Positions 7,602 to 32,899 of a stretch of 57,405 nucleotides of DNA are shown one piece after another. Both the position numbers and the translations under genes were made by a program. Under the pieces are notes generated by a model. It was not told the DNA's origin. It searched no databases and was given only the letters and a program-made list of their open reading frames with translations. The DNA lies in contig CM097882.1 in assembly GCA_044892505.1 (NCBI GenBank), positions 230,956,596 to 231,014,000 on the forward strand, written 5' to 3'. The DNA is from Schmidtea nova (Eukaryota). Position 1 is the stretch's first letter. Each line of letters opens with the position of its first letter.

Positions 7602-7602
<1 letters not shown>

Positions 7603-7987
7603 GTTGGGCCAGCCAAATAGAGGGAACAGTGAAATAAAAGTAGATTAATTAAAACAAAAAAGAGAAAAATAAGGTAAAAAGGGGAATATTTATTTATTAA
7701 AAGAAAGGAATAATATAGTAAAAATATAGATAAACTAAGTACAAGCTATAAATAAAAATAAATGAATTTCTAGATATTAACGGGCCCAGGAGACATCTAA
7801 AAACAAATAAAATACAAATAATAATAATTAAAACCAAATAAAAGTACTTGTTATTGAATAATTGTTTTTGAAACCCGGACCTCCAAGGAAGAATACAATC
7901 TAAAAAATAAAAATTAATTAGAATCAAAAACAATAATTAAAAACCACCATGAAGCTGGCCGAACCTGATTGGTCGATCTAGACACGA

Positions 7988-8011
7988 CTGATCAGTATAA
8001 ATACTGATCAG
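7988..8011 (+). promoter_or_regulatory. TATA box embedded in a 24-bp palindrome (LTR promoter candidate)
   Basis: CTGATCAGTAT-AA-ATACTGATCAG contains TATAAATA at 7996-8003. The copy is at 33286-33309. Confidence 0.6.
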
Positions 8012-8993
8012 ATTTTTCATAAAATTAGACCGTGTAAAAACTTAGACTTTAGTAGACTTTGTTAGAATATAGATTTTAGACTTGTGACTTTGTTTGAGAC
8101 TAAAATTTAGACTTTGCAAAAAACTTAGACTTGTGTTCAGACTAAAATTCACATTAGATTGCACATTGCCCCGACGACGATCACCGTTTAGACCGATTTT
8201 GATCAATAAATTTTCGGAATTCAATTGAGGTATTTTTGGTATATTTACGTTTATTATTTGATATCGTTGTATTCATATGTCATTATCATATTATAATTTA
8301 TTGTTTATCTCGTTATGATTTATGTTTATATTTAAACTACTTAAACTATCATATTAATCTTGCGCCGTTGGGAGCTTTAGGTTCCCAAGGTGTCCGTCCG
8401 TGGCGTGGTGCTCGAGGGCTCCACACACGGTAAAGTAATAAATAACAAAACATAATTTTATTAGTGATGGTCGAGATTTGCACATGGGACACCCAACAAA
8501 TCCGGGGAATTATTTTCCGATCATTTTAGCTACAGAGGGGACGATAATTTTTTGATAAAGCTTAAAGATATGAAAGAATTTTGTAACCGTGAGGAGGCAC
8601 GAATTGTTCACCCTCACCACAGCACAATTGCTAGATAAACGTCTAATAAACCTTAGAAAAATTATGTCGACCGCATTTGGTACACAAGAGCGTTTTTCGA
8701 ATAAGCTAGGGATACATGACGGGAGAGAGCTTCCGTTTTGAGGTGTCAATATTTTGAAAATCCAAGCAGACAAATCACCAATTTTTCGACTATAATATTG
8801 ATCGTAAACAGATAAATCTAAGTAGATACGAGAGTAACGCATACCGTAACGAACGACAGTTTTCCCTTGATTTCAGTTAAGGTCTAAGGGGTAGGCAAAT
8901 AATAAAGGCATCACGATGAGAGATAACATCTACTATAATTAATTATTGATTTAAATTGTTAACTATTATAAAATTCAGCATCGTTTTGGAATC

Positions 8994-9470
8994 ATGACTA
9001 AACATAGATACACTATCAAAAAACGACAAGAACGAGCCCGAGTTAGCCCATTAAAACCGGCTCCTTTTGAAATTCTGCAGCAAATCCATCAAAAAATGTG
9101 GGCATGGCGCCGAGAGCTTGAAACCGCCTGTCCATTTACAGTATGGGACCATCCACGGCATCACGTATGGTACCGGGGATGCGCTAGTTGGCCAATCATT
9201 CCAGATGAGGAATTTGAATCATCGCACGCCGCCTGGTTCATCCTGATGTTGGACAAAGGAGGATTCCCGAAATGTGTCATTTATTGGGGGTTCATTCCAG
9301 CCTCTACCTTCAAGGAATTGGGGTTCAAGTTCAACACAGCAATACGACCCCTTCGAGAAGCTGAGAGAACCCGTTTCCAGCAGGCCTCGTCCAATTCCAC
9401 AGGAATCCATACAAATTTGCAAATCAGATCGATATTTTCGTATCGAGGAAAAATGACCGAAGATGAATAG
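8994..9470 (+). CDS. LTR-encoded protein 1, 158 aa, unknown function
   Basis: ATG-initiated, GC-richer than its flanks, identical in the 3' LTR (34292-34768). Preceded by ttcag and followed by acctgttttt..aataaa. Confidence 0.7.
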   Translation: MTKHRYTIKKRQERARVSPLKPAPFEILQQIHQKMWAWRRELETACPFTVWDHPRHHVWYRGCASWPIIPDEEFESSHAAWFILMLDKGGFPKCVIYWGFIPASTFKELGFKFNTAIRPLREAERTRFQQASSNSTGIHTNLQIRSIFSYRGKMTEDE

Positions 9471-9788
9471 GTTGAATCAATGGCCACCTGTTTTTGAATT
9501 TAATAAATGTTTTAAAGAAGTCTGAAGTGTCTCATTTTGTTAATAGTGTTGTCATGTAGATTTAGTATTGTAGTTGTCATAGTCATTAAGAAATTGATTT
9601 ATTAATATAAAATTAGTTCAATAAATCTTTTAAACCTTCAATAATTAGATAGTTGAATAATTTTGCGAAGAACTCAATAATTAAAAACATTAGTATGCAT
9701 CTCGTTTAATAATAATAATAGTCGTTTAAATAAAATAGAATTGTTGATAGGTCCTCCAGCGAATTTATCGTTATAATATTCAGATAAC

Positions 9789-10373
9789 ATGCCGACTTCA
9801 GAAAATTCCAAGAAAATCATGGGACAAATCCAAGAGAGGAAGTTGAGGGACCAGCAGCGACAGATCAAGCGACTCACGGTCGCCAATGATGAATTGAGAG
9901 CGAAGTGGTTCTCACCCGAACAAATGAAGGACCAGTCGAAAAAACTTGAGCGAATGCAGGAAGCACTGGCCGCAACATAATTGGAACTAGATGCCGTCCA
10001 GCGAGAACTACGAAATTGCCTAAACGCAGTAACAAGAAGTTACATCGACTCCGAATTACGAGCGCTAATCCGGCCGATCACGGCTCAGCGCTGGATACAA
10101 TGCACCCACCAAGATGTCGCTTGCGGGACGGAAGAGGGAATCATCATGGCCCCCACTCTCGCAACGGAAGATTTGCCTATTTTTCTCAGTGATCCCCCGA
10201 GAACAATAGCGTCAGCACCGGTCATAAACCAACAGTTTCGAAAACATCGAATGGGATCGCGACAGCGTCGTCGTCGCCGAGAATTTGCGAAGCGCCTGGA
10301 CGAACAAATCTACCACTTGAACTCCTTAACCGAAGCGGAGTTGATTCAGGAGATTAGTCTGGAATTCGCTTAG
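9789..10373 (+). pseudogene. LTR-encoded protein 2 (coiled-coil, Arg-rich C-terminus), interrupted by TAA at 9978-80 in this LTR
   Basis: The 3' LTR copy (35087-35671) is an open 194-aa ORF with ACT AAA where this copy has ACA TAA. Confidence 0.75.
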
Positions 10374-10932
10374 GAAAACATCCATGTAAAATAACAACCT
10401 GTTTTTAATATTTTAATAAAAGTATTTTCTGTGTAAATTTTGTCTCTCATCGTGTGATTTCACTAAATAAAATAAATGACTCAATCATAGAAATGGAAAA
10501 TCCCATCAATATTTTTCTCAGACCGACCGTTTCTACGCAGAGACTGATTAATTACATTGTAGCTCGATTAAGGAAAGTCATTGGGAAAGGTGTATGATAG
10601 ATCATAAGGATATGTAGTACAAAATTCAGTAGGAAACGAACATCCATAGAATGTAAATGCGTAAGACCTTCTATCGGCAGCAAGGACCCGAGGGAAGATA
10701 AATGGGGAGTAGTTTTGGCAACAAAGCTCACCTGCCCATCAGTTTTCCACCACCGTATGCAGTACCAACTTGACTAGTAGGGAATAGTCAAGGGCATACG
10801 CGTGTAGTAGTCATGTTATGTATGGTTATGGGCGTGGAATCCCTAGTATACGTACTCACCAATAGTCGTTCAATTAATGATTAACTATTTATTTGAATTA
10901 CTTAAAACCCACCCATAAACCCAGCATAAATT

Positions 10933-10950
10933 TGGGGGCTCAGCCGGGAT
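10933..10950 (+). promoter_or_regulatory. Primer binding site, tRNA-Pro type
   Basis: TGGGGGCTCAGCCGGGAT matches the classical tRNA-Pro PBS TGGGGGCTCGTCCGGGAT at 16/18 and lies just after the LTR end. Confidence 0.88.
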
Positions 10951-11255
10951 CAACTTTGTTTTTATGCGGAAAAGGTGAACCCAATGACAACAGAGAAACT
11001 TAAAATCAGAATTTTGTGAGTAGAAATAGTAACCGAAAGAGTAAACGAGATAAAAGTGAGTTGCGTGGAAATAGATAATTACAAACAGAGAATTAAAACA
11101 AATTAGTAGATAAATTGAACAAATGCATTCATACATAACAGGTCGGGACGACAATTTACCGAAACACGGGGGGAGGCTGTAAAACTGCCAGAAACGAAAC
11201 ACAGTACTACTTTTCGAATAATATTAACACAGTAATTAAATAAATTATCTAGGAA

Positions 11256-11717
11256 ATGGAGGAAAAACTGAAAGAAATCGAAGAATTTTTCAACACCGAG
11301 AACGATACATTTGAGACAGTCTGCGAAAAAATAACCCGAATAAGAGCATCCGAATATGAGGAACCTACGACACAAACTGAGGAAACAACTGAGTTAATAA
11401 AAATCATAGATAAAGTAAATAAACTCGATATAAATACGCGATATAAATGGTACAAAGCACGATTAGAGGATGCCGAGTTGAATATCAGATGCCGACATAT
11501 AGAACAGCAGTTAAACCTAACTTATAACCGATGGATGTCGCAAGGGGTCGAGGCAGCAAAACAATATAAACGATGTTACATATGTGAAGACAGTGAAATC
11601 CAAATAATGTTTCTACCATGCGGACATTTTCGATTTTGTAAAAACTGTGCGAATAAGTGTGATGAGTGCCCCATGTGCAATTTCTCTGTAACTGATAGAA
11701 TTGTAGTTTATTTATAA
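11256..11717 (+). CDS. 153-aa protein with a C-terminal IAP/MDM2-type RING finger, no BIR
   Basis: CYIC..IMFLPCGHFRFCKNCANKCDECPMC...RIVVYL at the extreme C-terminus. Confidence 0.85.
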   Translation: MEEKLKEIEEFFNTENDTFETVCEKITRIRASEYEEPTTQTEETTELIKIIDKVNKLDINTRYKWYKARLEDAELNIRCRHIEQQLNLTYNRWMSQGVEAAKQYKRCYICEDSEIQIMFLPCGHFRFCKNCANKCDECPMCNFSVTDRIVVYL

Positions 11718-13466: not shown

Positions 13467-16400
13467 TTGAGAAAAGGAGAAAAGAGTGTCATAATAAAAC
13501 CAGCAGAGAAGAAAGTCGACAGAAAAATCAACAAAGAGGACCCAAATAGTGTGGTAATAAAACCAGCAGAAAAGAATAAAGCTACCAAGAATAATAATCA
13601 GAAAGGCCCAAAAGGAAGTAAAGCAAGGCAGATAATAATACAAAAGTCGATTATCGAAAACGATAAATTATCAGTAACAAGCAACAGTTCAAGCAACAAA
13701 GAAAATCAAGCAGAACCCGAGAGAAACCCAATAAGTGAAATAGAAGTCGACAAAACCAACAACGATTATATAGAAGAAATAGAAGACGAAGTAGAACAAG
13801 AAACAGAAAGTGACGATACCGATAACGATAGTAAAGCATCAGATAACGAATCAACAAAAGAAACTGAGATCGACCGAAATTCGAGTGACGAACCTAACAG
13901 TGAACTAGAAACAAGAGGAAACGAAAGTAAAATAACTACAGACAGCGGAATCGAAATGAGCGAACCAAGAGAAGAGATAAAAGACAAATTTTCCGGAGAA
14001 CCGTTTAATGGAGATGCGAGTAAATTGGAAACTTTCTTAAAAGAATTTGGCATATTCGTGGAAGTATGCAAGTGGAAACCAGAAACAACTATAAGCAGAA
14101 TTCAGCTATATTTAAAAGATAGCGCATTAGATCTATATTTGGAAGCAAAAAATGGAATTAATCCACCTACAAGTTGGTCAGCGATAAAGGACTTTTTCCA
14201 ACAAACCTTCGGAATAAACAAAGTATTGAATGAGGCATTTACGGAATTCTCAATGAGGAAACAAAAGATAAATGAATCGAATGCGGTATATGCAAGCGAA
14301 TTAAAAAAGTTAGCAAAGTTGATTTTCAATCAAGACAGCCCAATAAATGAGGAGTTAATGGCAGCTATCTTTGTGGGAGGATTAAGAAGACCCGACATAA
14401 GAGCGCAAGTTGGATGTCAAGGGTGTAAAACTATTGACCAAGCATTAGAAACAGCTAATAGATTTGAACTACACATGATAGGAAATGACGGTAGAATCTA
14501 TTTAGCTATGGATACAGCACAAAACGAACAAGAAGTGAACCTGAATAACCACATTCCAAATTCACAACAATTAAACCGACCACCACCGCAACGAAGGAAT
14601 GAAGGGAATAAAGTATCAAATTACGGAAATCAAAACAATTACAACCCCCAAGGACCAACGAAACAATGCAAAACATGTGGGAAATTGGGACATTGGCAAC
14701 AAGAATGTTATCAGAACTTGAATTGTGGAAAATGTGGAGTAAAAGGACATTCAGAGAGCAGATGTTATACAATAACCTGTTTTAATTGTGGACGACCTGG
14801 ACACCTATCAAGAAAGTGCGGACAAAGAAGCAATCAACGAGGAAACTGGCAGAATATTGGAAACCGACCAAACTATGGAAACCAACCAACTGGTGGAAAC
14901 CAACCGAATTATGGGAATCAGCCAAATAATGGAAACCGACCGGAATACGGAAACCAGCAAAATAATAATAATAACCAAAATAAAAACACCACTAAAGAGA
15001 TACATTTAATGCAAGAGGTTCAAAGATTGACGGAGCTGATAAACAATACAAACAGAGGAAATCCGCAAACAGGTCAACAACAAATCAACATGATGAGAAA
15101 AATAGAAAGCGAAAACGAACGATTGAATCGGGAAAGCCAAGCACGACATGCTCAGGAATGGGCAAGAATACAAAGAGAAGAGGAACAAAAACAGCAAGAA
15201 AGAGAACGACAACCTCTAAGAATTAATATGATGAGAGCAACCAATCAAACAAATACCCACGAGAAAGAGACGGTGCCAGAAATAAATCCAACAAACCTGA
15301 ATCCAACCAATAACGAAAGTCGAAAAGAAATAGTACCAGGAAGCGAAGAAGTAGAAAAAGAAATAGAGAAGGAAGTGGAAACAGAGGTAAACCAGGAAGA
15401 GAAAAAAAAGATTTGGAAAAAGGGAATGATGGTAATCCTGCCAAACGGTCATATGTTTCGATTCCAATACAACATAAAGGAAGAAATAGGAATATTGTTC
15501 AACAAAGTAAATGAAATGGCTCCAGGAGTAACGAAACTGCCCAGAGAAGCATTCCTAAAAATAGAAGGTGCACCAGAAGTAAAATTGAAATTAACAGATA
15601 CATGGGAAAACATGGGAGTAGTAGAAACAAAAAGAAATGTGATGGTAATCAAAGAAATAGAACCAGAAGGAATTCCACCGCCAGTGCGTCACGAAACACG
15701 AATCAGTCGAATATTTAAAGGGAAAATGATACGAAGACGGTTGGGAGAAATAGACGAGTTGGAACGAAAAATGAGAAAGGTCGAAGTAGTAGACGATGAG
15801 AGTAAATCAACACAAAAAACTATCGAAAATGAAACGAAACCAACGGAAAATACACCAAGTGAAATCAACCAAATAAAACACATTAACATGTTGAGAGGCC
15901 AGGCAAAGAATTTTTCAGACGACGAAGAGGATAGTGACGTCAGTAGTCTAGCCGGAGACATGCTAAACGAACCGGAAATTGAAGACAAAAAGATAGAAGT
16001 AGTAAAGACACAAGGAACTATTCAAGTAAAAGAAGACGAGATCCAGAAATTATTAGATAATACGCTAGAAGTAATATATAATGAGGAATTCATTGACAAG
16101 AAACACTATAGAAAATTCATGAGAGCGATATTACAAATGAACTATAAAGAGTGGTTACCAGGCCGGGAAGTAGAAACACTAACCCAATACGTAGGAAAAT
16201 TATTAAAAGAACCACTCCATGAATATATAATCCTAATAGAGATAAAAACATGTTTGCCAAGGATTTGGATCAAAACTCCACTCACGGAAGATATTTACCA
16301 ATGGGTAGAAGACAGATTAGGGAGCTCGTATAAGAACAAATTCCTCTATTCACAGAATGGACTAGTAAAGAAAAGGACGCATTTGATAGAAACAGGCATA

Positions 16401-19400
16401 TGGCCAGGAGAGGTGACAACATTATCGATATGCGATGATAAGAGAGAAGAGAACATACAAGAAGTAGCAAAGGAAGCGAATACGTGTTTCGAGAAGAAGA
16501 TAAAACCACGGTCAGAATATGAGAAAGGACGAATCTTACGAGGAAATCTAAACTCCATGATAGAACAAATCATCCCACAAATCAAAAAACATAGGAAGGA
16601 GTTAATGAGAAGCGAATACGAGAAGTTGAAACGATGTATCGAGTGCATACGTGACACAAGTCACACGAGATGGTCACAGATCTCATACGGAAAAGTAATT
16701 GCAAAAATGGGAAAAGCAATGTTCAGACAAGGGAAAATAACAGATCTGAAAATTGCAGTAGAGTTACCTAATGAGGATACCAAAGAAATTGAAGTGGTAG
16801 CAGACTGTACCATAAAAGAATTAGTAAATGTCCTCAACGAGACACTATTACAAAGAGAACCAGAAGAAGAATGGGAAGATGACATAATCATGAAATATAA
16901 TGAACATGTATTATGGGATCACGATGAAAGACGGCTATATAAAATTGGTATATGGGATAATCACCAAACCATCCACGTTATCAGAATGGACGATAAACCA
17001 AGAGAAACTGCTAAAGATGAGAAAAGAGAACGGGAACGACAAAAAGAAGTTGTGCATAAATTACAACAAATAGTAGACATCTATCGAAATTGGCGGATTT
17101 GGCCAGAATGGGAAGATGTATTAGAAGAACTCAATCTCAACAGACGATTACGAAAACCTGTAGAAAAACAATGGAACGAACGAGGAAAATGTTGGGAACC
17201 AAAAGCAGGCGAATACGAAGAGGAATACGAAATAGGCATAGAAGACGATCACAAACCGGAAACCGGAAGAGTCTGTATGGTAACAAGAAAAGCCATGCCA
17301 GCGGATTTAGACGGACCTGAAACAACAACCATGTGGTTGGAAAGAGAGAAACAAAAAACAGAAGAATTTGTCGAAATATTAAAAACCAATGCGCACGGCA
17401 AGAGAAAAGTAGTAAAAGGTCTCGCAGATTTTTTCGTAGTTAATGGAGAAGACATAACATGCTTTCGTAAAGTAGCAAAAGCAATCGCCGAATACAAAAG
17501 AGTTAACGAGTGGTGTCCAGAACAATTGGATCACGTAATTAAAAAATGGAGAAACCAAGAATTCTCGCAGGAATCGCCACAGAAAGTACACCTAAGAATA
17601 GTATATCCGAACCAAGAAAAGGAAGAGTTTTGGGTAGGGATAGCGGAGAAAGTTCGAGACATTAAAAGGAAATTGAGATATGAACCACCATTCCATTTAC
17701 AACACCAAGGACGATCATTAGATAACAGCTTAGAAATTGGAATAACGCCAGCGCAATTAGATATCGCAAATACATTGACAGTGGCAGCAATAGCAGGCCA
17801 ACCATTAAAATTGAAAGAGGAAAAGAAACCAAAAGGAAGTATGAGTACGCCGAGCCCAATGAAATCGGTAATGACTCCAGGAACAAGCTCAGAACAAGCT
17901 AGAACAACACCAAGAGAGACAAGAGAAAGAACACCACCAGAACCATACGATGTAGACGAAATTTTTACAGATAGCGATGATATGTTAGAGGAGTTAATAG
18001 AGCTAACAAAAGAGAAAGATGATAATATTTTCGAAAGAATTCAAGAATTACCAACAGCAATACCGGTAACCAACACCGAAGATGAAGTTGAACAAGAAAT
18101 AATCATCGAAGAAGTAAATGAAATAGCAGAAGAGGAAGCAAGGAGGGCAAATGTAGAAAATGTACAATTCACACAAGAAATGGAAAGATGGTTAGAAGAA
18201 AGAGCCAATGAACCAAGAGACGTCACAGAAGAAACTGGACGAGAAACAAGATTAGTAGAAACGGGCACGACAATGGACAAACGACCTAGAGGTAGACCCA
18301 AGATGGATCCAGCAAATGTAATTATAAAATCAAGAGAGGAAAAAAGACGGGATCAATGGGATTTGTGTCTAAAGAAACTAAATAAAATAGCCGAAACGAA
18401 AGAAAAAGAAACAACACAAACATACCAAGGCGAGGAATGGATATCAAAGATGTTAATGGAAATACTGGCAATAATCGATCCGGAATTAAAGAAATGGTGG
18501 AGAATAAACGAAATAAGCGAAAGGGCGAAATCACTGCATAGCGCCATCGCACCAATCCTACCAGAATTAATAAAAGAGAAGACAAGGTCAAACCACCTAG
18601 ATTGGCAAGGAACCACGATGTTGATAAAGAAGTTAACGGAAGGAGCAGAGACGGATAACAAATATTTAATAGCTATGGCATACACCATTTACAATCTGCT
18701 GACACTGAGTAGAGGTCGACTGAAACCCACAGCACTTGAAAGACATATAAAGAATACAGCCAAAATTATAGAGAAGGAAATAGAACCGTACATCATCAAT
18801 AAAGGAGGATGGGAGACATTCACAAAAACAAACCAAAAGAAAAACCAATCCAAAAATATGAAAAAGAAATTCGAAGAGATATTGGGAGAATTGGAAAAGG
18901 AAAAGTCGGGAACAGGAAACGGGAAATCATCACTAAACTTGAGTTCTATTATTATGATGATGTTAATATGGATGATTAGTACTGACGGCGCAACAGCATT
19001 TGAAGTATTCGATTGCGATCAAATGGCATTAGGTGAAAAATACTCATTACGAGGGACAGAACAATGTAAAGACGCAACCCCAACGGAGCTAAAAACATTA
19101 AAAAAGAGACAATTATACCACGTATATCAGGAAGCTGAACTGATAAGAACAATGGTCAGGGAATGCAAAGTTTATAAAACCAGATTTGCTTTTTATTGTG
19201 GACACCGCCATTATTCAGCAATCGTGATGCCAGGAACGGAAAGAGAATCAGTAATGCTGCAAGGAGAAGACTGTGAAAAATTATTCAAACATGGAGAAGT
19301 AGAGACCAGAGATAGAGTAAAGATAAGAGGAAAAACGGGAGTAATATTACAACAAACATACTATGTAGCAGGAGCTATTACGGGAGGAGAAGGGTATTGT

Positions 19401-20147
19401 CAAGGAGCAACATATCCAATATTCGGAGTAGCAGCAACAAACCTAGTAGTAATAGATACGTATACAGTGGAATTAAAAACGTACGAGGCATTCTTCGACC
19501 CAACAACGGGAGAAATGAAAACTCTACCAATGTGCAAAATCGAGTCAAACACGTGTCAGACTGGTATGTCAACCTTAACATACCAGATACGAGGAAAGGA
19601 ATGTCAACTACAACTGTTAAAGGAAGCAGAATTCGATGAGATACAAGGGAAAACCTTCCAAGAGGAAGAAGAAGACGAGGCAGCAAGAGGAAAAATACTT
19701 CAAGACACCGTACGAGGAGAGAAAAAGATTGAAACACGAACACAAGAAAAGCAAATCAAAATGAGAAATACACCAACGGTACTAATTACCTCCGATGCAG
19801 ATATCGGAATGAGATTTGTAAAAGGTAAAACAGCCTTGAAATGCGGAGTAGCCATGTTGGAAACCAACTACCCCGGCATTTTTGTATCAAAACAAGAAGT
19901 ACCTAGTGCGAAACGCAAAGTGCACACGAACGATGTTAAATTACACCTTTACATGAATAATAAAATGGATTTTCTGTTCCATAGAGGACAAGCGTCACTA
20001 CAAAAAGTGTATTACGATTTAATTAACAACGACTGCATACTAAATAGGGAAATATTAAAGACAAAACTAGCAGTAGCAATCACAAACCCGGATAGTGCAA
20101 TGCCATTATTACCATTGAGAGAAGGTCATTTTGGAAGGGTAGTCTGA
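13467..20147 (+). CDS. gag: Polyprotein part 1: Gag (CA + 3 CCHC), Ubl-like modules, AT-hook, Bcl-2-like domain, signal peptide and N-half of fusion glycoprotein
   Basis: Capsid-like FNGDASKLETFL..IFVGGLR and three CX2CX4HX4C knuckles at 14667-14819. The true start is unresolved (first in-frame ATG 13956). Ends at TGA in frame with the next ORF. Confidence 0.9.
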   Translation: MRKGEKSVIIKPAEKKVDRKINKEDPNSVVIKPAEKNKATKNNNQKGPKGSKARQIIIQKSIIENDKLSVTSNSSSNKENQAEPERNPISEIEVDKTNNDYIEEIEDEVEQETESDDTDNDSKASDNESTKETEIDRNSSDEPNSELETRGNESKITTDSGIEMSEPREEIKDKFSGEPFNGDASKLETFLKEFGIFVEVCKWKPETTISRIQLYLKDSALDLYLEAKNGINPPTSWSAIKDFFQQTFGINKVLNEAFTEFSMRKQKINESNAVYASELKKLAKLIFNQDSPINEELMAAIFVGGLRRPDIRAQVGCQGCKTIDQALETANRFELHMIGNDGRIYLAMDTAQNEQEVNLNNHIPNSQQLNRPPPQRRNEGNKVSNYGNQNNYNPQGPTKQCKTCGKLGHWQQECYQNLNCGKCGVKGHSESRCYTITCFNCGRPGHLSRKCGQRSNQRGNWQNIGNRPNYGNQPTGGNQPNYGNQPNNGNRPEYGNQQNNNNNQNKNTTKEIHLMQEVQRLTELINNTNRGNPQTGQQQINMMRKIESENERLNRESQARHAQEWARIQREEEQKQQERERQPLRINMMRATNQTNTHEKETVPEINPTNLNPTNNESRKEIVPGSEEVEKEIEKEVETEVNQEEKKKIWKKGMMVILPNGHMFRFQYNIKEEIGILFNKVNEMAPGVTKLPREAFLKIEGAPEVKLKLTDTWENMGVVETKRNVMVIKEIEPEGIPPPVRHETRISRIFKGKMIRRRLGEIDELERKMRKVEVVDDESKSTQKTIENETKPTENTPSEINQIKHINMLRGQAKNFSDDEEDSDVSSLAGDMLNEPEIEDKKIEVVKTQGTIQVKEDEIQKLLDNTLEVIYNEEFIDKKHYRKFMRAILQMNYKEWLPGREVETLTQYVGKLLKEPLHEYIILIEIKTCLPRIWIKTPLTEDIYQWVEDRLGSSYKNKFLYSQNGLVKKRTHLIETGIWPGEVTTLSICDDKREENIQEVAKEANTCFEKKIKPRSEYEKGRILRGNLNSMIEQIIPQIKKHRKELMRSEYEKLKRCIECIRDTSHTRWSQISYGKVIAKMGKAMFRQGKITDLKIAVELPNEDTKEIEVVADCTIKELVNVLNETLLQREPEEEWEDDIIMKYNEHVLWDHDERRLYKIGIWDNHQTIHVIRMDDKPRETAKDEKRERERQKEVVHKLQQIVDIYRNWRIWPEWEDVLEELNLNRRLRKPVEKQWNERGKCWEPKAGEYEEEYEIGIEDDHKPETGRVCMVTRKAMPADLDGPETTTMWLEREKQKTEEFVEILKTNAHGKRKVVKGLADFFVVNGEDITCFRKVAKAIAEYKRVNEWCPEQLDHVIKKWRNQEFSQESPQKVHLRIVYPNQEKEEFWVGIAEKVRDIKRKLRYEPPFHLQHQGRSLDNSLEIGITPAQLDIANTLTVAAIAGQPLKLKEEKKPKGSMSTPSPMKSVMTPGTSSEQARTTPRETRERTPPEPYDVDEIFTDSDDMLEELIELTKEKDDNIFERIQELPTAIPVTNTEDEVEQEIIIEEVNEIAEEEARRANVENVQFTQEMERWLEERANEPRDVTEETGRETRLVETGTTMDKRPRGRPKMDPANVIIKSREEKRRDQWDLCLKKLNKIAETKEKETTQTYQGEEWISKMLMEILAIIDPELKKWWRINEISERAKSLHSAIAPILPELIKEKTRSNHLDWQGTTMLIKKLTEGAETDNKYLIAMAYTIYNLLTLSRGRLKPTALERHIKNTAKIIEKEIEPYIINKGGWETFTKTNQKKNQSKNMKKKFEEILGELEKEKSGTGNGKSSLNLSSIIMMMLIWMISTDGATAFEVFDCDQMALGEKYSLRGTEQCKDATPTELKTLKKRQLYHVYQEAELIRTMVRECKVYKTRFAFYCGHRHYSAIVMPGTERESVMLQGEDCEKLFKHGEVETRDRVKIRGKTGVILQQTYYVAGAITGGEGYCQGATYPIFGVAATNLVVIDTYTVELKTYEAFFDPTTGEMKTLPMCKIESNTCQTGMSTLTYQIRGKECQLQLLKEAEFDEIQGKTFQEEEEDEAARGKILQDTVRGEKKIETRTQEKQIKMRNTPTVLITSDADIGMRFVKGKTALKCGVAMLETNYPGIFVSKQEVPSAKRKVHTNDVKLHLYMNNKMDFLFHRGQASLQKVYYDLINNDCILNREILKTKLAVAITNPDSAMPLLPLREGHFGRVV
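18350..18830 (+). other. Bcl-2-like domain in the polyprotein
   Basis: Helical domain ending EIEPYIINKGGWETF (BH2-like WI..xGGW..F), with a weak BH1-like LDWQGTTMLI. Confidence 0.55.
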
Positions 20148-20850
20148 GAGGTCATGTATGTATACATATGTAAAAAGACAAACGCGAAAGTAGCGACAAT
20201 GACAAAATTACAACCAGGTCAGTGTACTAACGAACTAGAAATCGAATATAAAGGGAAAGTGAGATATGTACAACCAGTGACAAGAATCATAAATCCAATA
20301 AGCTTCGAACCAAATCCTTTCAATTGCAGCAACGCATATGGACCACTATACCAAAGGCCAGACGGGAATTGGGTTATGTTTCCGTCAAGAACAGAGGTAC
20401 CAGCACCAAGAGAATTTGAATTAATGCAACTATCAAAAGGAAGAAAATTTAAAGACGTAGATGTAAGCAATATGGGATTCTATAGTGCAAAAGATTTAGA
20501 GGCAGCAAGACAAAACATACTATTTCCAGCAAGACGAGAAGCGGTGTTATCCAGTATTGTAACAATAACAGGAGGAACAAATTACCAAGGTGGACCAAAT
20601 TACGAATTATTATTGTCACCAGCCCACTTTAAGAAGGCAACGGAAAACATGATGAAAGCGATGTGGGGAAGATTTTTAATATTTGGACAAATGATGGCAG
20701 GAATACTTGGTGTTATACTAATTATACAAATAATACGGGTAATAATAACGCAAATGTTAGCCTGTTTTGACATCTATAAAAGAGAAAAGAAAGTAAATTG
20801 GAAATTGGTGGTAGGATTCTTACCATTTTTGGCTAAAACAATGGTATTAC
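18933..20850 (+). other. env: Env: chuvirus-like (class III, gB-related) fusion glycoprotein with internal signal peptide and TM
   Basis: SSIIMMMLIWMISTDGATA followed by FEVFDC..YSL..C, FYCGHRHYS, G.CQGATY, CG..LETNYPGIF, (G)EVMY..C and C.NEL...Y. TM FLIFGQMMAGILGVILIIQII at ~20673-20770. Confidence 0.8.
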
Positions 20851-23800
20851 ACGGCCATTCAAAAGATATTCACCGAATAAAGAGACTCCTAAAAATACTG
20901 GCAAAAATGAAAGGAACCGACGAAGAAGTAGGACGGAAATTTAAAAAGATAATGAACAATGAGCAAGCGAGACAACAACTAAAGAAAGAGAGAAAAGGAC
21001 TATGGGAAAGAATGAAAGGGTACAGAACCCAAGACGATTCCAGTGACGACGATGATGATGATAACGAAGGAGGGCAAGTATATAAAAATCAAGTACCACA
21101 GTATGTCGAAAAGAATCCAGCCGAAATGTGGAAGTGTTACGCACCCGCACCAACCATGTACCAAGAACCAACACCAGGGATGAGACAAAATACAATGCAA
21201 ATGATGCCGATGACAAACATATATCCTATGATACCGGAAGACTATAGAACGAGACGGTGCAGAAGTGTAGATCCGCAAGGAGACTCACATACAATTGCAG
21301 TAATGTCATCAAACACCGGTCCAGTATTAACTACAACAATCGAAATTAACGGAAGGGAAATAGAAGCGATGATTGATACAGGAGCAAATATCTCAGCAAT
21401 AGATATAAAATGGATACCACAAGAACAAAGACGGGATATCGAGAGAACCAACGTTCACGTAATAGCATGCAGTAAAGAAGTAGTAGAAGTTGCCGGAAGA
21501 TGGCGGGTAAAGATAAAACATCAAAACACGGAAATCGAAACGTACGTAGCAGTAATACCAGCACTGAGCGTACCATGCATTATAGGCACGGATCTAATGC
21601 CAGCATTATTTAAAGAAATAGTTATTGACCTCGGAACAATGAGATTAAAGGATAGGACAGGACAGATATGCGCAATAGAAGCAAAAGTAACAAGTTCGAA
21701 ACAAATAATCGTACCAGCACGGAGAAAGAAAATATGTTTCGTAAAAATAGATCCTACAATAGAAGGTGACATGATCTTTGAACCCAGTAAAAGATTTGAA
21801 AAGAGAAAGTCGTTGCCAATGGCAAGGGGATTAGTGAGTGCGAACGACAACGGAGAAATCCCGATAAATGTAGTAAATTTCGATGAAGAGGATAAAATAA
21901 TTTATGAAAATGAAAGATTAGGTAAACTAACTCCAATGATAGATATCGAAATACCAATAAAAGAAGGAGTAAAAGAGGAGGAACCCACTTGGAACATTGA
22001 TAGCCAACTATTGAATGAGGAGCAAAAGAAACAGCTAGAAAGATTACTGATAGAATATAAAGACATATTCGCAGCATCCGATTTAGATCTAGGGACATGT
22101 GATGTCACACTACATACGATTCCACTAACAGACGAAACGCCGATTGCGTTAAGACCATACAAGTTAGCTGAAGCGCAAAAATCAGTAGCAGAAGCAGAGG
22201 TACAGAAAATGCTAGACGCAGAAGTAATTGAACCAAGCTGCTCACCGTGGCAATTCCCAGTTGTAATGGTGAAAAAGAAAGACGGAACACAACGATTTTG
22301 TATTGATTATCGGAGATTAAATGCGGTAACAAAACGGGATACCTACCCATTACCAGACATCAACGAGATGTTATTGACATTACAAGGAGCGGCATATTTT
22401 ACATCATTGGATTTGAAAAGCGGATACTGGCAAATTAAAATGAAGGAGGAAGACAAAGAGAAAACTGCTTTCCCCATCGGAAGAGACTTGTACCAATTTA
22501 GGAAAATGCCATTCGGACTAACCAATGCGCCAGCATCATTTCAAAGATGTATGAATTTCGTTACCCATGGCATAAAACAATGCATGGTTTACATTGACGA
22601 CCTACTGATCTACTCAAGCACATTTGAACAACACATCCAAGATATCAGAGATGTATTTGTGAGATTGAGACAATGGAAACTCAAGCTCAAACCATCGAAA
22701 TGCGATTGGGCAAAAGAGAAAGTGACATTCTTAGGACATATTGTGTCCGCAAAAGGAAAGGAACCAGATCCCAGAAACATTGATAAAGTAAAAGAATGTC
22801 CAGTACCAAAGACGATAACGCAGATCCAAGAATTTCTCGGATTATGCGGTTACTATAGAAAATTCATAAAGGATTACGCAGGAATTGCAAAACCAATCCA
22901 GGAGCTAGTAAAGAAAGACGTATCGTTCATATGGGGAAGCGAACAACAAACAGCCTTCGAAACATTACGAGATAGGTTAATAACCGCACCAATATTGGTT
23001 CACCCGGATTTCAAGAAGCCATTTTTACTCGCAACCGACGCAAGTGGATATGCAGCAGGAGCAGTGTTAGGACAATATGATGACGAGGGAAAAGAGCGGG
23101 TAATCGGATATTATAGCAGAACATTCAAGAAACACGAGAAGAATTATTCAGTAACGGAAAGAGAAGCATTGGCAATAATATTAGCAATAAAACACTTTAA
23201 ATATCTATTATGGGGACACATTATATGCATAACCACGGATCATCAACCACTGGTATGGCTAGGACAACATAAGGAAACATCCAGCAGGTTGATGAGATGG
23301 GCGATGCAATTACAAGAATATTCACCAGATATAAAATTCAAATCAGGAAAAGCGAATGCCAACGCAGATTGCATGTCAAGATTAACGTTTCCAGAATTAA
23401 CAGACCCAGAAGTGCAAAGAATATGCATAATGATAGCAGAGGATTTGGATTTCAGTGAGTTAAAGAAAGATCAGCAAGAGGATAAAGAACTAAGACCCAT
23501 CATAGAATTCCTAAGCTCACGGAATATGGATGTATTCAAAGACAATACGGAGTTAAAAGAACACATGAGGAAATACCAACATCGATACACAATAGAAAAA
23601 GGATGGTTATTAATACGAGATGGAGAGAAACGATTAATGTGTCTGCCAGGTAATAGACGAAAAGAGATAATAACTCAATACCATGACGGAAAGCTAGGAG
23701 GACACATGTCCGATAAGAAGACATTAGATCGTATGAGACAAAAATATTATTGGCCAACAATGGACGAGGACGTTAAAGAATGGATAAAGAACTGTTTAAC

Positions 23801-26800
23801 TTGTGCCACAAGAAAGGATAGTGGGAAGAAATGGAAAAATCCCTTAAAACCCATGCCGATACCAGCAGAACCAATGACTACCATTGCGATGGATGTAATA
23901 GGACCATTGCCAGAAAGTTTAAACGGGAATCAATATATATTGGTAATAACGGATTATTTGACTAAATTCCCTGAAGCATTTGCGATGCCGGATCAAAAAG
24001 CAAAGACCGTAGCAAGAATTTTAGTAGAGGAAATATGTTGTCGATATGGAACTCCGAAACAAATACTGACAGATCAAGGGACAAATTTTATGAGCGAAAT
24101 ATTAGATGAAGTAACAAATTACTTCAGAATAGCCAAATTACGAACGTCACCATATCATCCGCAAACTAATGGACAAACGGAAAGATTTACCGGCACATTG
24201 ATTCGAATGTTATCCAATTATGTAAGCAAACACCAAACAGATTGGGATGAGTACATAAAGCTATGTCTAATGGCATACCGAATGTCGATACACGCAGCAA
24301 CAAAATTGAGTCCATTTCAATTAATGTATGGAAGGGAATGCAATATGCCAATAGATCTTGAATATCAACCACCTTTGTCTCAATATATGGAGGAAGATGA
24401 TTACGTCACCAAATTCAAAGAACGAATGCAAGAGATATGGAAGACCGCAGAACTAAACATAAAGTTTTATCAAGAGAGTTACAAGGACCTACACGATCAG
24501 AAGAAGAATGTTAGAGCAAATGATCTTAAACCCGGAGATTGGGTAATGATAGAAACCCCAGAAATAATACCAGGAACCGTTAAAAAACTACAAAGACCAG
24601 GAAAAGGCCCTTACGAAGTTATATACAAAAAGGAAAACAATGTGAAGGTAAAACTTGTTAATCGACCATTGATACGACCAATATACGTTAATACATGCAG
24701 ATGTAAAAAAGTACCAAAGACAATAACCACAGCGCCAGAAGAACGAATAATAACCAGATCCCAGACAGCCAGAATGAATATGCTCAGAGCAACCAATGAA
24801 AGTACCGAAGCAGAAAACAATCAACAAGAAAAAAGAAACAAGGAAATTGTACTAAAAGCCAGAGAAATAATGGGAAAATGGCATGTCAGAGACGATATAT
24901 TAAGAGATATTCAGTCGATAATTAGTGATTACGCAAGGGGACTACCAACAAAACCAGTCATTTCAGAACTACTGGAAAAGATTCCAGAAATACTTTCACT
25001 AGAAGACATAGGAGGACAACCAGCATTACATAACGCCATAAAATGGGGAGAAGTAGAGAGAGTAAAAGAATTTCTAAAAATCGCTAAGGAAACAAACCAA
25101 CACCTTGGTTTTGGGAATAGCGAACAAGAAACACCATTAATGGTAGCAGCCATCTACAAATCGGATAAAGCAATAATAGACCTTTTGATAAATGCCGATT
25201 TCAACTGGACGGAACGCGATAGAGAAAACAAAACAGTCTTGAATCACGCAATATGGAGCTCAAATCAGATAATGCTCAAACAAATAATCGAGAAGGCCAC
25301 TTGGGAAATAGACGAACTGATCAAAGGTGATATAATCAAGGAGGCAATAAAAATCGGTAACTGCAAAACAATACGCAAGCTAATAAAGTGGAAAAGATCC
25401 GAAAATGATACATGGGTATTAAATATAAACGAGGTATACAGTGAAGGACAAAACGCGTTATTACAATTCCTATTAAAATTAGTTTGTGATCAGAAAACAC
25501 TGTTAATATTATTGGACAGAAGAAATATTACAATTTCCAAAAACAAAGAGGAGTGTAAATTCGAAAGGGAAAAAGAAGCATTATTCAGGAAAATTAGGGA
25601 ATGGTGTGCAAAATCGCTAACCAAGACGATAACTTACAAAGATATATCCAATTTTCAAGACAAATACAAAACGGTGGAGGAAGAGTATGACAAACTAATA
25701 GACATATTAAACCACCCTGAAAAATGCAAACAATTCCTATGTCGAAAGGAAAGAGAAAGCAAAAGGAAATTTACACCACTTTTCAGCGCAGAGATACCAT
25801 ATCAAGAAAGGTTAGATGCGATACAGGACAAAGCAAAAGAACTATTACCAGAATTCGAAAATTCTAAACATACACTGGAGATACTCGGAGCAATTGTGGA
25901 AAAGGTACACGCATACGCGGAAGGAACTTACAATGAAAACGATATGATGATCATAAAAAGAGAAATGCCAGTGACTTTCTTATTAACAAAGAATGGAGTA
26001 TTGCCAATACATAGAGCCTTACGAGCAGGAAAAGATAGGAGGGTAGTCGAAATTGCACGGTTGATGCAAGATTGCGGAAGTGACATGAACATGAAAGATA
26101 AAAAGGGAGATACTCTCATGATATTCGCAGCAAGAGCGAACACAAAAACCCGAGTGTTACAGGAACTGTACGAAGCAGGTGCAGGACTCATGGGAAGAAC
26201 CAACAAAGACAGCTCAATACTAGACGTAGCGTTGTTAGCGCACAATTGGGAGGTGATAAATTTCATAAAAACAATCACAAATCAGGAGGAAATAGAATAC
26301 CTTATAAGGACAGTTAAAAAAGCTAGCGTACATTCCATGATGCATAACGCTGGACTAACCGAAGCAATACTCAATTGGATGAACCCAAACACCAATGAAC
26401 CAGCATTCAGGATCAACGAGTTCATGGAACAAGGCCAAAATTTGTATATAAAGTGGGCATTAATAATAAACAAATGGCCAAAGATAATAGACATCTTCAT
26501 GAGAAGAAAAGATTTGCGATTCACAAACAACCCAAAGGAAACAGAACGTACGGACAAATGGAAAGAACTAATGAAAACGTACCTTAATAATTGGATAAAA
26601 GCCAAGAAAGAGATTCTAGATTGTAAATTAACCGATAAGGAAATACCTAAGCAGGCAGTAACACAAGAATATAAAGCAAGTATACTCACAACCATAACGT
26701 ATGAAAAAATGGTAGAAGCAATAAATGTCGAGGACGACATTTTCAACGACCAAAGGGGAGGCGACAATACAGGAAACGACGACGATAGTACTCGAGAAAA

Positions 26801-29032: not shown

Positions 29033-29389
29033 ATGAACGAACAGGAAGAAATAGCAGAAACTACTATGGCTATGCGATGGAAAGCCCAGTGTGACATGTT
29101 AATACGAACAATCAACTCACTACAAAATCAGTTAATTGAGAAACAGAATTTGTTATCCGAAAGTTATAATAATAGTTTTGAACAACTCCACAGAATCGAG
29201 GAGCAACAGAGATTGATAACGCAACTTACCAGAGAGAATCAAGTAATGAGCGACATAAATCAGAGACAAGCAATAGAGATAGACCGTTTAACAATGGGAG
29301 AGACAGAAGAAGCAGAGGATGGATGGACAAATTGGGCAATAAACAGATCAGAAAACGACCCAGAACCAGATTCAACAAACGAGCCGTAG
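29033..29389 (+). CDS. 118-aa coiled-coil accessory protein
   Basis: ATG ORF with heptad-like Q/E/L content, flanked by AT-rich spacers. Confidence 0.65.
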   Translation: MNEQEEIAETTMAMRWKAQCDMLIRTINSLQNQLIEKQNLLSESYNNSFEQLHRIEEQQRLITQLTRENQVMSDINQRQAIEIDRLTMGETEEAEDGWTNWAINRSENDPEPDSTNEP

Positions 29390-29479
29390 ATAAATAAAGC
29401 GAAAAATTGTAAATATGTAAAACAAAAACAAGAAAAATCAAAAAATAAATAACAAATCAAGTGTATATATCATTGTAGA

Positions 29480-30862
29480 ATGAATACAGAAGGAAAAGCC
29501 GAAGAGCGGATAATCGAAATTTTGAGAGCCGAGAACAGGAAATGGAGTCAGAGACTCACTTGTGTAAATTGTAAAAACAAAATATTGAAACCAAGACAAA
29601 CCCTATGCGGATGCAGAGTATGTACCAAATGCATACACGAGTTAAGTATGAAAAGACCACCAGAATGTCCAGAATGCAAAGAAGGACAAATAAAATTCGA
29701 AGAAACCGGACCAGATAGAGCAACTCAGAGAGAAATCATGAACACGAAAACCGAATGTATAAATCAACCATGTATATGACAAGGACAAATACGCGATCTC
29801 GAGAACCATCTGGAGAACTGCGAAGAGAAGAGAACTGAATGTAACAAATGCCAACAAAAAATAACTATAAAGAATAAAGAGCAGCACAAAGATGAATGTA
29901 AAGAAGAGGAAAGTCTATGCGAATATTGTGGAACTCGAGAAACGAGGAGAAAGATCGAAGAAGAACACCTGAATGTAAAAGAGGAGAAAGTATGTAGACA
30001 ATATGTAGGAATATGTGCAAACGAATGCGAGATAACGGTAGAAGTAAAATTACAAGAACATTGGAAAGTGTGCACGGAGAAACCAAGGGAATGTCCTTAT
30101 AACAAACAGGGATGTATGGAGAAAAGAACGCAAAAAACCATGAAACAACATCTGGAGGAAGCATTGCTAAAGCATGCGGAAATGACAAACGAAGCAACAA
30201 AAGAAACCGAACAAACAATCAAAAAATTAGAAAGAGAAATAGAGTCACACAAGATAATGGTAAACCTACTGTTGGAAACCAGAGAGCAATTCGAACTAAC
30301 ACGAGAAAAGATGGAGGAAAAGATAAAAGCTATCGAAGAATTGGCTAAAGGAATGAAAATCCAGTACAACAAACTCACCCAGGATACCGAGGAAAAGTTA
30401 CCAATCGCACCATATGTGTGGAAAGTGACAGATTTTAGAGACAAATTAACAGAGGCCAGAAATATGACGAAAACAGCAGTAATAAGCCCACCATTTTATT
30501 TATGGAGAAACGGAGCTAAAGTGAGATTGAAGCTATACCCAAATGGAGACGGAAGAGGACGAGGAACACATGTGTCAATATTTTTCTCGCTATGTAAAGG
30601 GGAATACGACGACCTAGTAGAATGGCCCTTGAAAGTAGGAGTCATTGTAAGAATCAGAAGTGTAACAAAACCAGTAGAAAAATTCTTTGAGACAGAGAAA
30701 CATGCGAGTACGAGCGAGAAACCAACCACAGAATGTGGATTAGCAGCGGGAGAACCGATGTTTATAACGAAAGAAAGCCTATGGGAACGATTATATGCAG
30801 ACACCCTATACATAGAAATGGAAAGGAATGAGAAAGCGGATAGAAAAGGATGGTTGACGTAA
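29480..30862 (+). pseudogene. TRAF: TRAF-family protein (RING, TRAF zinc fingers, coiled coil, MATH), 460 codons with one in-frame TGA at 29777-79
   Basis: ORFs 29480-29779 and 30068-30862 are in one frame, and I found no other stop between them. MATH motif YVWKV..F...SPPFY...LYPNGDGRGRGTHVSIFF..GEYD..EWP. The TGA sits at the Trp of C.W.G. Confidence 0.9.
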
Positions 30863-30977
30863 CAAGAAAAGTGATCATGTAAATAATATGTACAGTTAAA
30901 TACCCAAAAATTATTATATAAACAAAAATAACTGATATATAAACCGATTAAAAAATTCTTTTTCTGTAATTATAGCA

Positions 30978-32039
30978 ATGGGAAATATCGAAGTATGCTT
31001 ACAGGAAATTACGATGCATCAAGCAGAAGCGATTAGCGATCATCTAGAACAGATCGAAATATGGGTCAATGCATATTATAGAAAGCAGGAGAAGGTAGAG
31101 AGACAAGCCGAATTATTAAAAGAAGCGGAAAGATCAAGTCAAAGAAGTCGAGAAAAAATAGAAGAAGTATACAAAATGCTAAAACAACAAAAGGAATATT
31201 ACCAGGGAATGATGAAAGAGCGACGAGAGGAAAGAGACAGACAGCAGATGGAAACAGAACACAAGATGTATTCGATTACAGAACAAGCAAGATACTGGAA
31301 GAAAGAAGCGAAAGAATCTTACGAAAAAGCTAGAGAAATAATAGAACGGACAGCTTATAGTGATGACTGGAAGTTATATAAAGAGATCGATGAACTAAAA
31401 GACGAGTTAGAGCAAAAAATCAACCAGGAAGTGTTAAATAAAAGATGGAATACAAAAAGACAGCAATTTATCCGCGAACAAGCAAAGGAAATTAAAGGAC
31501 TAACCTATCAAGTTCAAAGAATGGGAGAAGAACTAGCTAATCAAGAACAACTGAAAACTATGCTCACCGGAATATGGAATCAGAAAGAAGAAGAGATGAA
31601 GAGAGATATAAATGGTTACCAAGGAGTGATTACCCAGAAGAAAATAGAGCTAAAAAGAACCAGAGAAAGGTTAAAGGAAGAGAAACAAAGTTATGAGGAA
31701 AATTTAACAAATTTGATGAAAGAAAACGAAGAATTGAAACAGAAACGAGTAACAGTATCGGTAATACCTAAAGAAGCAAGTATAACGGCAGCCGTAACAA
31801 AAATGATGAAAGAAGACGAACAAAAGACAAAAGTAATCGAATTAGAAAAGCAAATAGAAACATTAACAGAACAAGCAAATTACCTAGAATATTGGCTGGA
31901 CGAGGAGATCCAGATATCTCACATGTATCGAGATGAAGTCGAAATGTGGAGGAGCAGGGTTGTTTGGATACCACTCCCTACGAACCAGGTAGAACCTCAG
32001 GACGAAGGTTTCTACGAACCAAACGAGACGATTGTGTAA
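30978..32039 (+). CDS. 353-aa coiled-coil accessory protein
   Basis: Long E/K/Q-rich ATG ORF. Confidence 0.75.
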   Translation: MGNIEVCLQEITMHQAEAISDHLEQIEIWVNAYYRKQEKVERQAELLKEAERSSQRSREKIEEVYKMLKQQKEYYQGMMKERREERDRQQMETEHKMYSITEQARYWKKEAKESYEKAREIIERTAYSDDWKLYKEIDELKDELEQKINQEVLNKRWNTKRQQFIREQAKEIKGLTYQVQRMGEELANQEQLKTMLTGIWNQKEEEMKRDINGYQGVITQKKIELKRTRERLKEEKQSYEENLTNLMKENEELKQKRVTVSVIPKEASITAAVTKMMKEDEQKTKVIELEKQIETLTEQANYLEYWLDEEIQISHMYRDEVEMWRSRVVWIPLPTNQVEPQDEGFYEPNETIV

Positions 32040-32121
32040 ATAAAGCGGAAAATATATTTTTGTAAATAATTGTATGAAATGTAGTGTCAAATTGTATTGA
32101 CCTATCTGTAAAGAAAACAGT

Positions 32122-32694
32122 TTGAAAAAGCTCAGAATACCGATATTCCTATACCTAATAACAATCACCCTACAAAGAGAAGATCTTCAACTCACAGAGA
32201 AGGAGCTACGAGCCCTACCCGAGAAAACCTATCAAGAGCTAGATAAACTAATCAGCGAAGCAACACAAGAAATCACCCAACTTCAACAGATAACATTAGA
32301 CAACCCAAACGATGAAAAATTTCAACAGGTCCTATACGAACATCGAATCAAATTGAAAACAATCAGAAAAACCCTAAAAGAAGGTCGAGAACCCATAAAA
32401 AGCTTAGCCCAAGCAGAGATAGAATATCAAGAAAAATGGATCATCGCAATTATAATAATCCTTGCACTCAGCGTGACCATTATCGCGATCACAATCCTCA
32501 TAACATCCTACCGAGTAAAGATCCTAAAACAAAAACAAGTCATCTTGAATCGAACAACAATACCAGATATCAGAACCCAAAAACGAATGAGAAAACATCT
32601 CAACCGAATCCAAAGCCTCTACGAACTACGAACAATCAGCGAAAGAACCCCAATCCAATCCAATACCAATCATGAAATCAAAGAGCTGGTGTAA
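32122..32694 (+). CDS. 190-aa predicted membrane protein (signal-like N-terminus, TM WIIAIIIILALSVTIIAITILI), TTG start
   Basis: Open frame. (M)KKLRIPIFLYLITITLQ looks like a signal peptide but the first codon is TTG. Confidence 0.6.
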   Translation: MKKLRIPIFLYLITITLQREDLQLTEKELRALPEKTYQELDKLISEATQEITQLQQITLDNPNDEKFQQVLYEHRIKLKTIRKTLKEGREPIKSLAQAEIEYQEKWIIAIIIILALSVTIIAITILITSYRVKILKQKQVILNRTTIPDIRTQKRMRKHLNRIQSLYELRTISERTPIQSNTNHEIKELV

Positions 32695-32868: not shown

Positions 32869-32899
32869 GCGGGACGCAATTTTAGGGGTCCCCGAGTGA
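32869..32899 (+). promoter_or_regulatory. Polypurine-tract region (atypical) before the 3' LTR
   Basis: gcgggacgcaattttaggggtccccgagtga followed by TGT, a gypsy-like GGGACG..TTTT..GGGG context. Confidence 0.55.

Follow-up and report, generated by a model that had tools for sequence, protein, structure and literature searches.

The long terminal repeats (LTRs) of a giant Ty3/gypsy retrotransposon in the genome of Schmidtea nova contain two open reading frames, ORF1 and ORF2, that are real genes under purifying selection; LTRs are ordinarily non-coding. Comparisons among copies and lineages indicate that this two-gene LTR cargo is old, selected and real, and that the genes are likely to be spliced from one promoter.

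The window, the whole stretch of 57,405 nucleotides that was analysed (contig CM097882.1), holds one LTR element, a Burro-like Ty3/gypsy retrotransposon of 28.6 kb that extends from 7602 to ~36224. Outside the coding parts of its LTRs, its main features are:

7602..10926, + strand: 5′ LTR, TG...CA, 3,325 bp (LTR pair comparison)
10933..10949, + strand: primer-binding site, tRNA-Pro-like, an assignment that we presume (sequence)
11256..11717, + strand: internal accessory RING ORF, with a YAG 3 nt 5′ of its ATG (domain scan)
13956..28907, + strand: Gag-env-PR-RT-RH-IN-ankyrin polyprotein frame, with one in-frame stop at codon 2064
29033..32694, + strand: row of internal accessory ORFs (ORF list and domain scan)
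32885..32899, + strand: conserved stretch at the polypurine-tract position, 5′ of the 3′ LTR
32900..~36224, + strand: 3′ LTR (LTR pair comparison)

The LTR starts lie 25,298 bp apart. The two LTRs differ by 4 mismatches over 3,306 comparable positions, and the insertion is therefore very recent and the element young. Membership in Ty3/gypsy follows from paired TG...CA LTRs, the primer-binding site, 4-bp target duplications (at solo copies) and the Pfam order PR-RT-RH-IN (positions 394-484, 706-864, 952-1056 and 1165-1336). The long frame, 4,983 codons with one stop and with PF24664 on both sides of that stop, encodes Gag, CCHC knuckles, a mononegavirus-type fusion protein, PR, RT, RNase H, integrase and ankyrin repeats. 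A polyprotein of ~5,000 aa, an env-like region between gag and pol, and ankyrin, MATH/TRAF and RING cargo make the element Burro-like; Burro1 is characterized by a BIR-containing IAP ORF, and BIR is absent from the eight element proteins scanned. We therefore call the element Burro-like and not Burro1, an assignment made from the layout described in sections of PMC6431247. The accessory row comprises an ORF of 118 aa, a TRAF-like RING to MATH ORF with one stop, a 353-aa coiled coil and a membrane-anchored ORF that is without an ATG in the window copy; the first three of these have a YAG 1–3 nt 5′ of the ATG.

Several fragments of a Penelope-like RT/GIY-YIG element, in inverted and tandem arrangement, flank the insertion (1300-7550), whose target is a (TTA)n tract. 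Three successive tandem arrays (61-, 40- and 43-bp units) occupy the 5′ leader before gag (12193-12930). The gag frame stays open for 174 codons 5′ of its first ATG (13434-13955), with a CAG near the start; this acidic extension is possibly spliced or non-ATG. Words like TGTA(A/C)ATA, which we take to resemble Pumilio elements, lie 3′ of most accessory ORF stops (28907-32900 and 10374-10440).

The LTR genes and the signals that follow them are:

8994..9470, + strand: ORF1, 5′ copy, 158 aa, basic N-terminus and Trp/Phe-rich alpha/beta body (dN/dS 0.13)
9486..9507, + strand: ACCTGTTTTT...AATAAA 3′ of ORF1, predicted poly(A) signal (AATAAA retained in 48/48 insertions, exact 10-mer in 22/48)
9789..10373, + strand: ORF2, 5′ copy, with an in-frame TAA at codon 64 (9978-9980) that leaves 63 aa
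10397..10420, + strand: ACCTGTTTTT...AATAAA 3′ of ORF2, predicted poly(A) signal (AATAAA retained in 45/48, exact 10-mer in 27/48)
34292..34768, + strand: ORF1, 3′ copy, open and identical to the 5′ copy
35087..35671, + strand: ORF2, 3′ copy, open, 194 aa, with a coiled coil, a motif at the TQT position, an Arg-rich patch and a Leu-rich tail

An earlier note, made from the sequence of the window, had placed ORFs of 158 aa and 194 aa inside both LTRs. This holds for ORF1, which is open in both, and for ORF2 in the 3′ LTR only. The codon-64 stop of the 5′ copy occurs in none of 29 other translated loci; it may be a private mutation or an assembly error, the two being indistinguishable. The same note described the ORFs as richer in GC than the A-rich internal genes, and the base composition bears this out (GC 46% in ORF1 and 50% in ORF2, A 31–32%, versus GC 36–39% and A 40–46% in six internal ORFs). 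Each ORF is also followed, as had been noticed, by the 10-mer ACCTGTTTTT (starting at 9486 and 10397) and AATAAA (at 9502 and 10415), and the 10-mer occurs four times in the whole window, twice per LTR. When the LTR was shuffled in blocks, a pair of ORFs of at least 194 and at least 158 codons arose in 0 of 2,000 shuffles, and a single ORF of at least 158 codons in 20 of 2,000.

That the ORFs are conserved genes was borne out by dN/dS among LTR copies, a check that the note had named. We compared 48 insertions, which remained of 30 + 36 loci once 8 places fetched twice and 10 partner LTRs had been set aside. Averaged over pairs, dN/dS is 0.13 for ORF1 and 0.16 for ORF2, versus 1.3–2.7 in shifted frames; pairwise means are not independent, so these values are descriptive and carry no test. 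Third codon positions are 3–4 times more variable than first and second positions. Indels are depleted about tenfold relative to the flanking LTR (distinct indels per 100 bp: 1.5 in ORF1, 0.5 in ORF2 and 9–14 in the flanking parts), and the sole shared indel within the coding stretch is 9 bp long. The frames are open in 43 (ORF1) and 42 (ORF2) of the 48 insertions. A genome search returned at least 150 matches per protein at 91–100% identity; among the matches listed, which were ranked by score and thereby favour intact copies, 4 of 150 for ORF2 and 2 of 150 for ORF1 contain stops. There are also LTR pairs in which ORF2 is broken in both LTRs: L019 and L020 share a stop, and ORF2 can therefore likely be supplied in trans.

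The pair is old: at least three further lineages carry both genes in this order, with protein identity down to ~25%. A tBLASTn search, another check that had been proposed, recovered same-order homologues in a sister family (L083/L084) that has ~66% identical accessory genes, the same LTR start and two GC-rich ORFs. Identity to the window element is 27% for ORF2 (E = 1e-13) and 22% for ORF1 (E = 0.075, tblastn); the homology of ORF1 is based on position, 19 invariant columns and profile matches to further lineages, among them a match in a third lineage (L139, E = 2.5e-34) to a profile dominated by the sister family. Sister-family dN/dS is 0.22 for ORF1 (0.17–0.26, 19 copies) and 0.09 for ORF2 (0.06–0.12, 15 copies). 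Further, older lineages are 49–87% identical to the third, and of 40 older loci selected through ORF2, 35 match the ORF1 profile as well (five places were fetched twice). Both genes are deleted in one sister-family LTR (L085). No homologue of either gene was found in the stretches searched of two smaller env-bearing gypsy families, nor in those of a family that bears BIR/IAP; given the latter, the genes are not needed by all Burro-like elements.

We had considered a BIR/IAP gene inside an LTR and rejected it, as that gene sits in the internal accessory row. The BIR/IAP family (L078, 2368-10000) has at least seven accessory ORFs 3′ of the polyprotein, six with a YAG within 18 nt of the ATG. The two smaller env-bearing families (L068, 2203-3651; L070, 2447-3853) have 0.9-kb LTRs and one accessory ORF of ~470–480 aa, in which a DAE motif resembling that of exonucleases was seen by eye, with a clear acceptor 5′ of the ORF. 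Elsewhere in the genome, on C2 (~405-455 Mb and 5-45 Mb), MATH-domain genes form a large cluster and dynein light chain is present in at least 20 intronless copies.

Many copies of the family exist as solo LTRs. In the family of the window element, 16 of 36 fetched LTRs are solos with 4-bp target duplications: among the first 20 unpaired matches, 16 are without internal sequence on either side and 14 have an exact 4-bp target duplication, and the next 16 fetched LTRs added 2 more. In the sister family, 17 of 20 fetched LTRs are solos. The genome has 298 occurrences of a 23-nt LTR motif, and 47 of the first-listed 100 places have no partner within 60 kb (hand count); together, these counts suggest ~110 solos in the window-element family. 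We rejected the LTR-PBS junction as a family measure because its 412 occurrences exceed the 298 LTRs, so it is common to other families. The earlier note had proposed that every solo LTR would spread a self-contained unit of a promoter and two genes. Eleven of the 16 solos do keep all eight features (TATA, donor, both acceptors, both frames and both AATAAA), yet 'every' is too strong, as one gene is already broken in 5 of these 16 young solos. The self-contained promoter also stands in modified form: the LTR has a TATA promoter, but it is a single one ~1 kb 5′ of ORF1, and the genes look as though they are reached by splicing. Old copies decay: in the third lineage, 10 of the best 20 ORF2 matches carry stops, and ORF1 is open to at least 180 aa in 7 of 40 older loci. 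Two further arrangements were seen, an LTR with internal sequence on both sides (L058, tandem elements sharing an LTR) and an element nested in the LTR of another copy (L076-L077).

The LTR segments outside the two genes contain the following predicted signals:

7968..8028, + strand: predicted core promoter, with ATTGG (reversed CCAAT) at 7968, TATAAATA at 7996 in a palindrome and a putative start near 8020-8028
8028..8231, + strand: predicted non-coding leader exon with a splice-donor-like AG/GT end (GT 8230); conserved and ATG-free
8362..8442, + strand: GC-rich double hairpin, then a second donor-like site (GT 8430) and AATAAA at 8437; conserved
8960..8978, + strand: predicted ORF1 splice acceptor, YAG 8976-8978 (YAG in 48/48: CAG 40, TAG 8)
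9765..9783, + strand: predicted ORF2 splice acceptor, YAG 9781-9783 (YAG in 48/48)

TATAAA is present in 36 of 36 full LTRs, and both ORFs lie ~1–2.3 kb 3′ of this only invariant TATA. Conservation is mostly 93–99% over the first 425 bp of the LTR, which end in ATTGG...TATAAATA, and it falls at 8027; U3 is therefore predicted to be short (~426 bp), with the ORFs 3′ of the start. The layout ATTGG...TATA...TCAG is also found in sister lineages. In each lineage the TATA box is centred in a palindrome whose arm sequences differ (window 7987-8010; L083 3116-3168; L139 5226-5276); older lineages have a second inverted repeat, in which ATTGG is paired with the start region.

A donor-like GT lies 80–260 nt 3′ of the promoter or start in 35 of 35 LTRs of the window-element family, including unalignable haplotypes, and such a site is found in 28 of 29 LTRs of sister and other lineages, with donor patterns that were chosen after the sequences had been inspected. 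The leader contains no ATG in 5,945 nt versus 111 in an equal length 3′ of the donor (related copies, about four haplotypes), and in the sister family there are 16 ATGs in 2,554 nt of presumed leader. The double hairpin is unusually stable (z = −3.8; as stable in 0 of 200 shuffles), and the second donor-like site and the AATAAA at 8437 are kept in 47 and 46 of the 48 insertions, respectively. An A/T-rich tract and a YAG that varies between CAG and TAG only precede each ORF. In the sister family, a branch point, pyrimidine tract and YAG precede ORF1 in several sequence versions, and several copies have a less distinct ORF2 acceptor. Across accessory ORFs, 17 of 21 have a YAG within 6 nt of the ATG versus 13% of 90 background ATGs, an enrichment whose significance is overstated because the 21 ORFs are partly homologous.

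Sister and older lineages have AATAAA or AATACA immediately 5′ of the donor; sections of PMC5068929 give AATAAA and the variant AAUACA as planarian poly(A) signals. In the window-element family, AATAAA lies 5′ of the first donor in only about one-third of LTRs. Linkage among LTR segments is weak across the donor region (ρ ≤ 0.35 to adjoining downstream segments), as expected if strand transfer occurs there, in a noisy signal that also breaks inside ORF2. No splice-type junctions were found in three internally deleted copies and one nested locus, and no poly(A)-tailed ORF2 retrocopy was found.

From these signals we consider it probable that the two selected accessory genes lie 3′ of a single TATA promoter and are separately spliced and polyadenylated from one short leader exon. 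Transcription would start near 8028, and splicing would join the donor at 8230 to 8978 (ORF1) or 9783 (ORF2), or run on to the internal accessory ORFs. Alternative splicing would be combined with alternative polyadenylation at the poly(A) signal after each gene, and the unspliced RNA would serve as the genome. Counter to this reading stand the leader ATGs and less distinct ORF2 acceptor of the sister family, the retention of AATAAA 5′ of the first donor in only about one-third of LTRs, and the lack of splice-type junctions and of an ORF2 retrocopy in the searches above. If the element's own poly(A) signal adjoins the donor, R would be short and the genes would lie in a U5 of ~2.5 kb. We lean slightly towards this arrangement; otherwise, the genes would lie in a very long R.

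The same acceptors could instead receive a spliced leader in trans, resolving an operon made up of the two genes and the internal accessory row. Sections of PMC12582326 describe flatworm trans-splicing and operons with intergenic gaps of up to 300 nt and acceptors in common with cis-splicing; here the gap from the first AATAAA to the second acceptor is ~275 nt, and cleavage after ORF1 would leave ORF2 in need of a new cap. Such a route would nevertheless leave the conserved donor and ATG-free leader upstream to be accounted for, and acceptor-to-ATG distances are of mixed frame (0–26 nt). Those distances fit poorly with a spliced leader that ends in AUG. Taken alone we think trans-splicing quite unlikely, although the cis and trans routes could coexist. 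It is more improbable again that each ORF is an intronless gene with its own small promoter. TATAA-like words do lie 20–27 nt 5′ of the ATGs (TATAAA at 8967 in 40 of 48 insertions; TTATAA 5′ of both ATGs), and MMTV sag has an internal LTR promoter, according to sections of PMC4667437. A TATA box would not, however, be expected so near the ATG, the YAG is better conserved than these words, and the sister family has a branch point, pyrimidine tract and YAG instead.

Chance frames or passive relics in a GC-rich LTR would accord with the absence of any homologue or fold match and with the broken ORF2 in the 5′ LTR of the window, but this explanation is refuted by the selection tests: dN/dS is 0.09–0.22 in two families, indels are depleted and the proteins are conserved at ~25% identity. 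Selection by the host, with solo LTRs as domesticated or mutualistic cargo, is very improbable. In its favour, the accessory IAP of Burro1 is reported to protect planarian stem cells (second-hand, via sections of PMC13465017), and singleton pN/pS in solos is 0.28 and 0.31. The values in paired LTRs are similar (0.44 and 0.35), so that the comparison cannot separate host selection from thin sampling and the singletons probably reflect thinly sampled active lineages; the decay of old copies also speaks against host selection. Selection is likely to act through element replication and not through the host.

Near the 3′ end of the LTR lies a further conserved feature:

10702..10802, + strand: conserved two-module RNA structure (covariation across lineages)

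Of its 27 pairs, 13 have changed on both sides, and 96.5% of cells are paired; none of 500 shuffles reached this level, and slid controls gave 28–47%. No Rfam match was found within 7500-14000. The structure may serve as a target or as a packaging signal. The BIR/IAP family, which is without the two genes, shares the last module of the structure (stem, CAGUACCAAC bulge, stem-loop), and a counterpart lies at ~4790-4845 in L138.

The two proteins are unrelated to each other when compared directly. No homologue of ORF1 was found by single-sequence search, by a profile search against 1.84 billion representatives, in Pfam or in Atlas, and none of ORF2 by single-sequence search, alignment search or Pfam; PDB sequence searches gave no match. 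ORF1 appears, from a weak model, to have a basic N-terminus, a helix and a Trp/Phe-rich beta region. Its single-sequence fold is unusable (pLDDT 36). Structure prediction, which had also been suggested, gave for a sister-family ORF1 with a 46-row alignment a model (pLDDT 58.5) with no clear fold match: the best match has Z 4.2, rmsd 4.2 and 68 aligned residues, and Foldseek returned none at E = 0.001. That ORF1 is a nuclear regulatory or counter-silencing protein is a doubtful suggestion.

ORF2 is ordered as a coiled coil with a nearly invariant WF, TQT or IQT, a variable linker, an R/K patch and a Leu-rich tail. TQT or IQT is present in 24 of 28 members, and the window-element family has CGT or IGT there. 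TQT is a site for the dynein light chain LC8; co-modelling of residues 92–131 with the genome's own LC8 scored 0.37 against 0.26 for the control, which speaks neither for nor against binding. The Arg-rich motif has 9–12 R/K per 20 aa in nine members and is conserved in the family alignment, and a loose export-signal pattern matches 25 of 28 Leu-rich tails, a count made without a background control. ORF2 might, tentatively, be an oligomeric RNA-binding regulator that aids the export or packaging of unspliced RNA in the manner of Rev and Rex, with a likeness to Rev that lies only in short motifs. The full combination, in which an LC8-dimerised, Rev-like RNA adaptor, a structured target RNA and a protein of new fold are joined by at least 100 solo LTRs per family that supply regulators in trans, is on the unlikely side.

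Rev and Rex share an oligomerisation helix, an Arg-rich patch and a Leu-rich tail. ORF2 resembles Rev, Rex, Rem and Rec in being small and in having an oligomerisation helix, an Arg-rich patch (11–12 R/K in 20 aa) and a Leu-rich tail, and its element is predicted to make many spliced RNAs and holds a conserved RNA structure. It differs in its ~190 aa, long coiled coil and TQT motif, and searches gave no sequence or structure match. If ORF2 does export unspliced RNA, a Ty3/gypsy element would have reached regulation in the style of complex retroviruses independently. The close same-strand genes, with a poly(A) signal and then an acceptor within 300 nt, recall the trans-spliced operons of flatworms as sections of PMC12582326 describe them; the conserved upstream donor suggests cis-splicing instead, and the unit lies inside the LTR of a mobile element.

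Burro/GYPSM1, the giant gypsy-like elements of dugesiid planarians (sections of PMC6431247), share with the window element a ~25-kb span between LTR starts, a ~5,000-aa polyprotein, a CCHC Gag, a mononegavirus-like env between gag and pol, ankyrin repeats, and MATH/TRAF and RING accessory ORFs. The section text of PMC6431247 names neither LTR genes nor a splicing scheme, and we found no description of LTR-internal genes in Burro-like elements in the literature searched; the primary Burro papers fell outside that scope, and prior annotation is possible.

The closest precedent is MMTV sag. In the sections of PMC4667437 considered here, sag and related betaretroviral LTR genes occur mostly in solo LTRs (490 of 527 contigs) and are under purifying selection overall (0.289), with none shown after insertion, and transcripts arise from several promoters. 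A protein gene inside the LTR that is retained in solo LTRs is common to both systems. Pfam and database searches revealed no sequence relation of the ORFs to Sag, however, and sag is one gene, in U3, in a retrovirus, whereas here two genes, each with its own acceptor and poly(A) signal, lie 3′ of the predicted start (in R or U5) of a Ty3/gypsy element. They would represent two new protein families. Solo LTRs are usually regarded as dead ends, yet in this family alone some 100 of them could still be sources of element proteins. Planarians permit RNAi and long-read RNA work, so that both this expression and the export of RNA by ORF2 are directly testable. If the full combination outlined above is true, a lineage of invertebrate retrotransposons would have converted the transcribed U5 side of its LTR into a spliced regulatory unit of two genes, which solo LTRs would supply independently of full-length copies.
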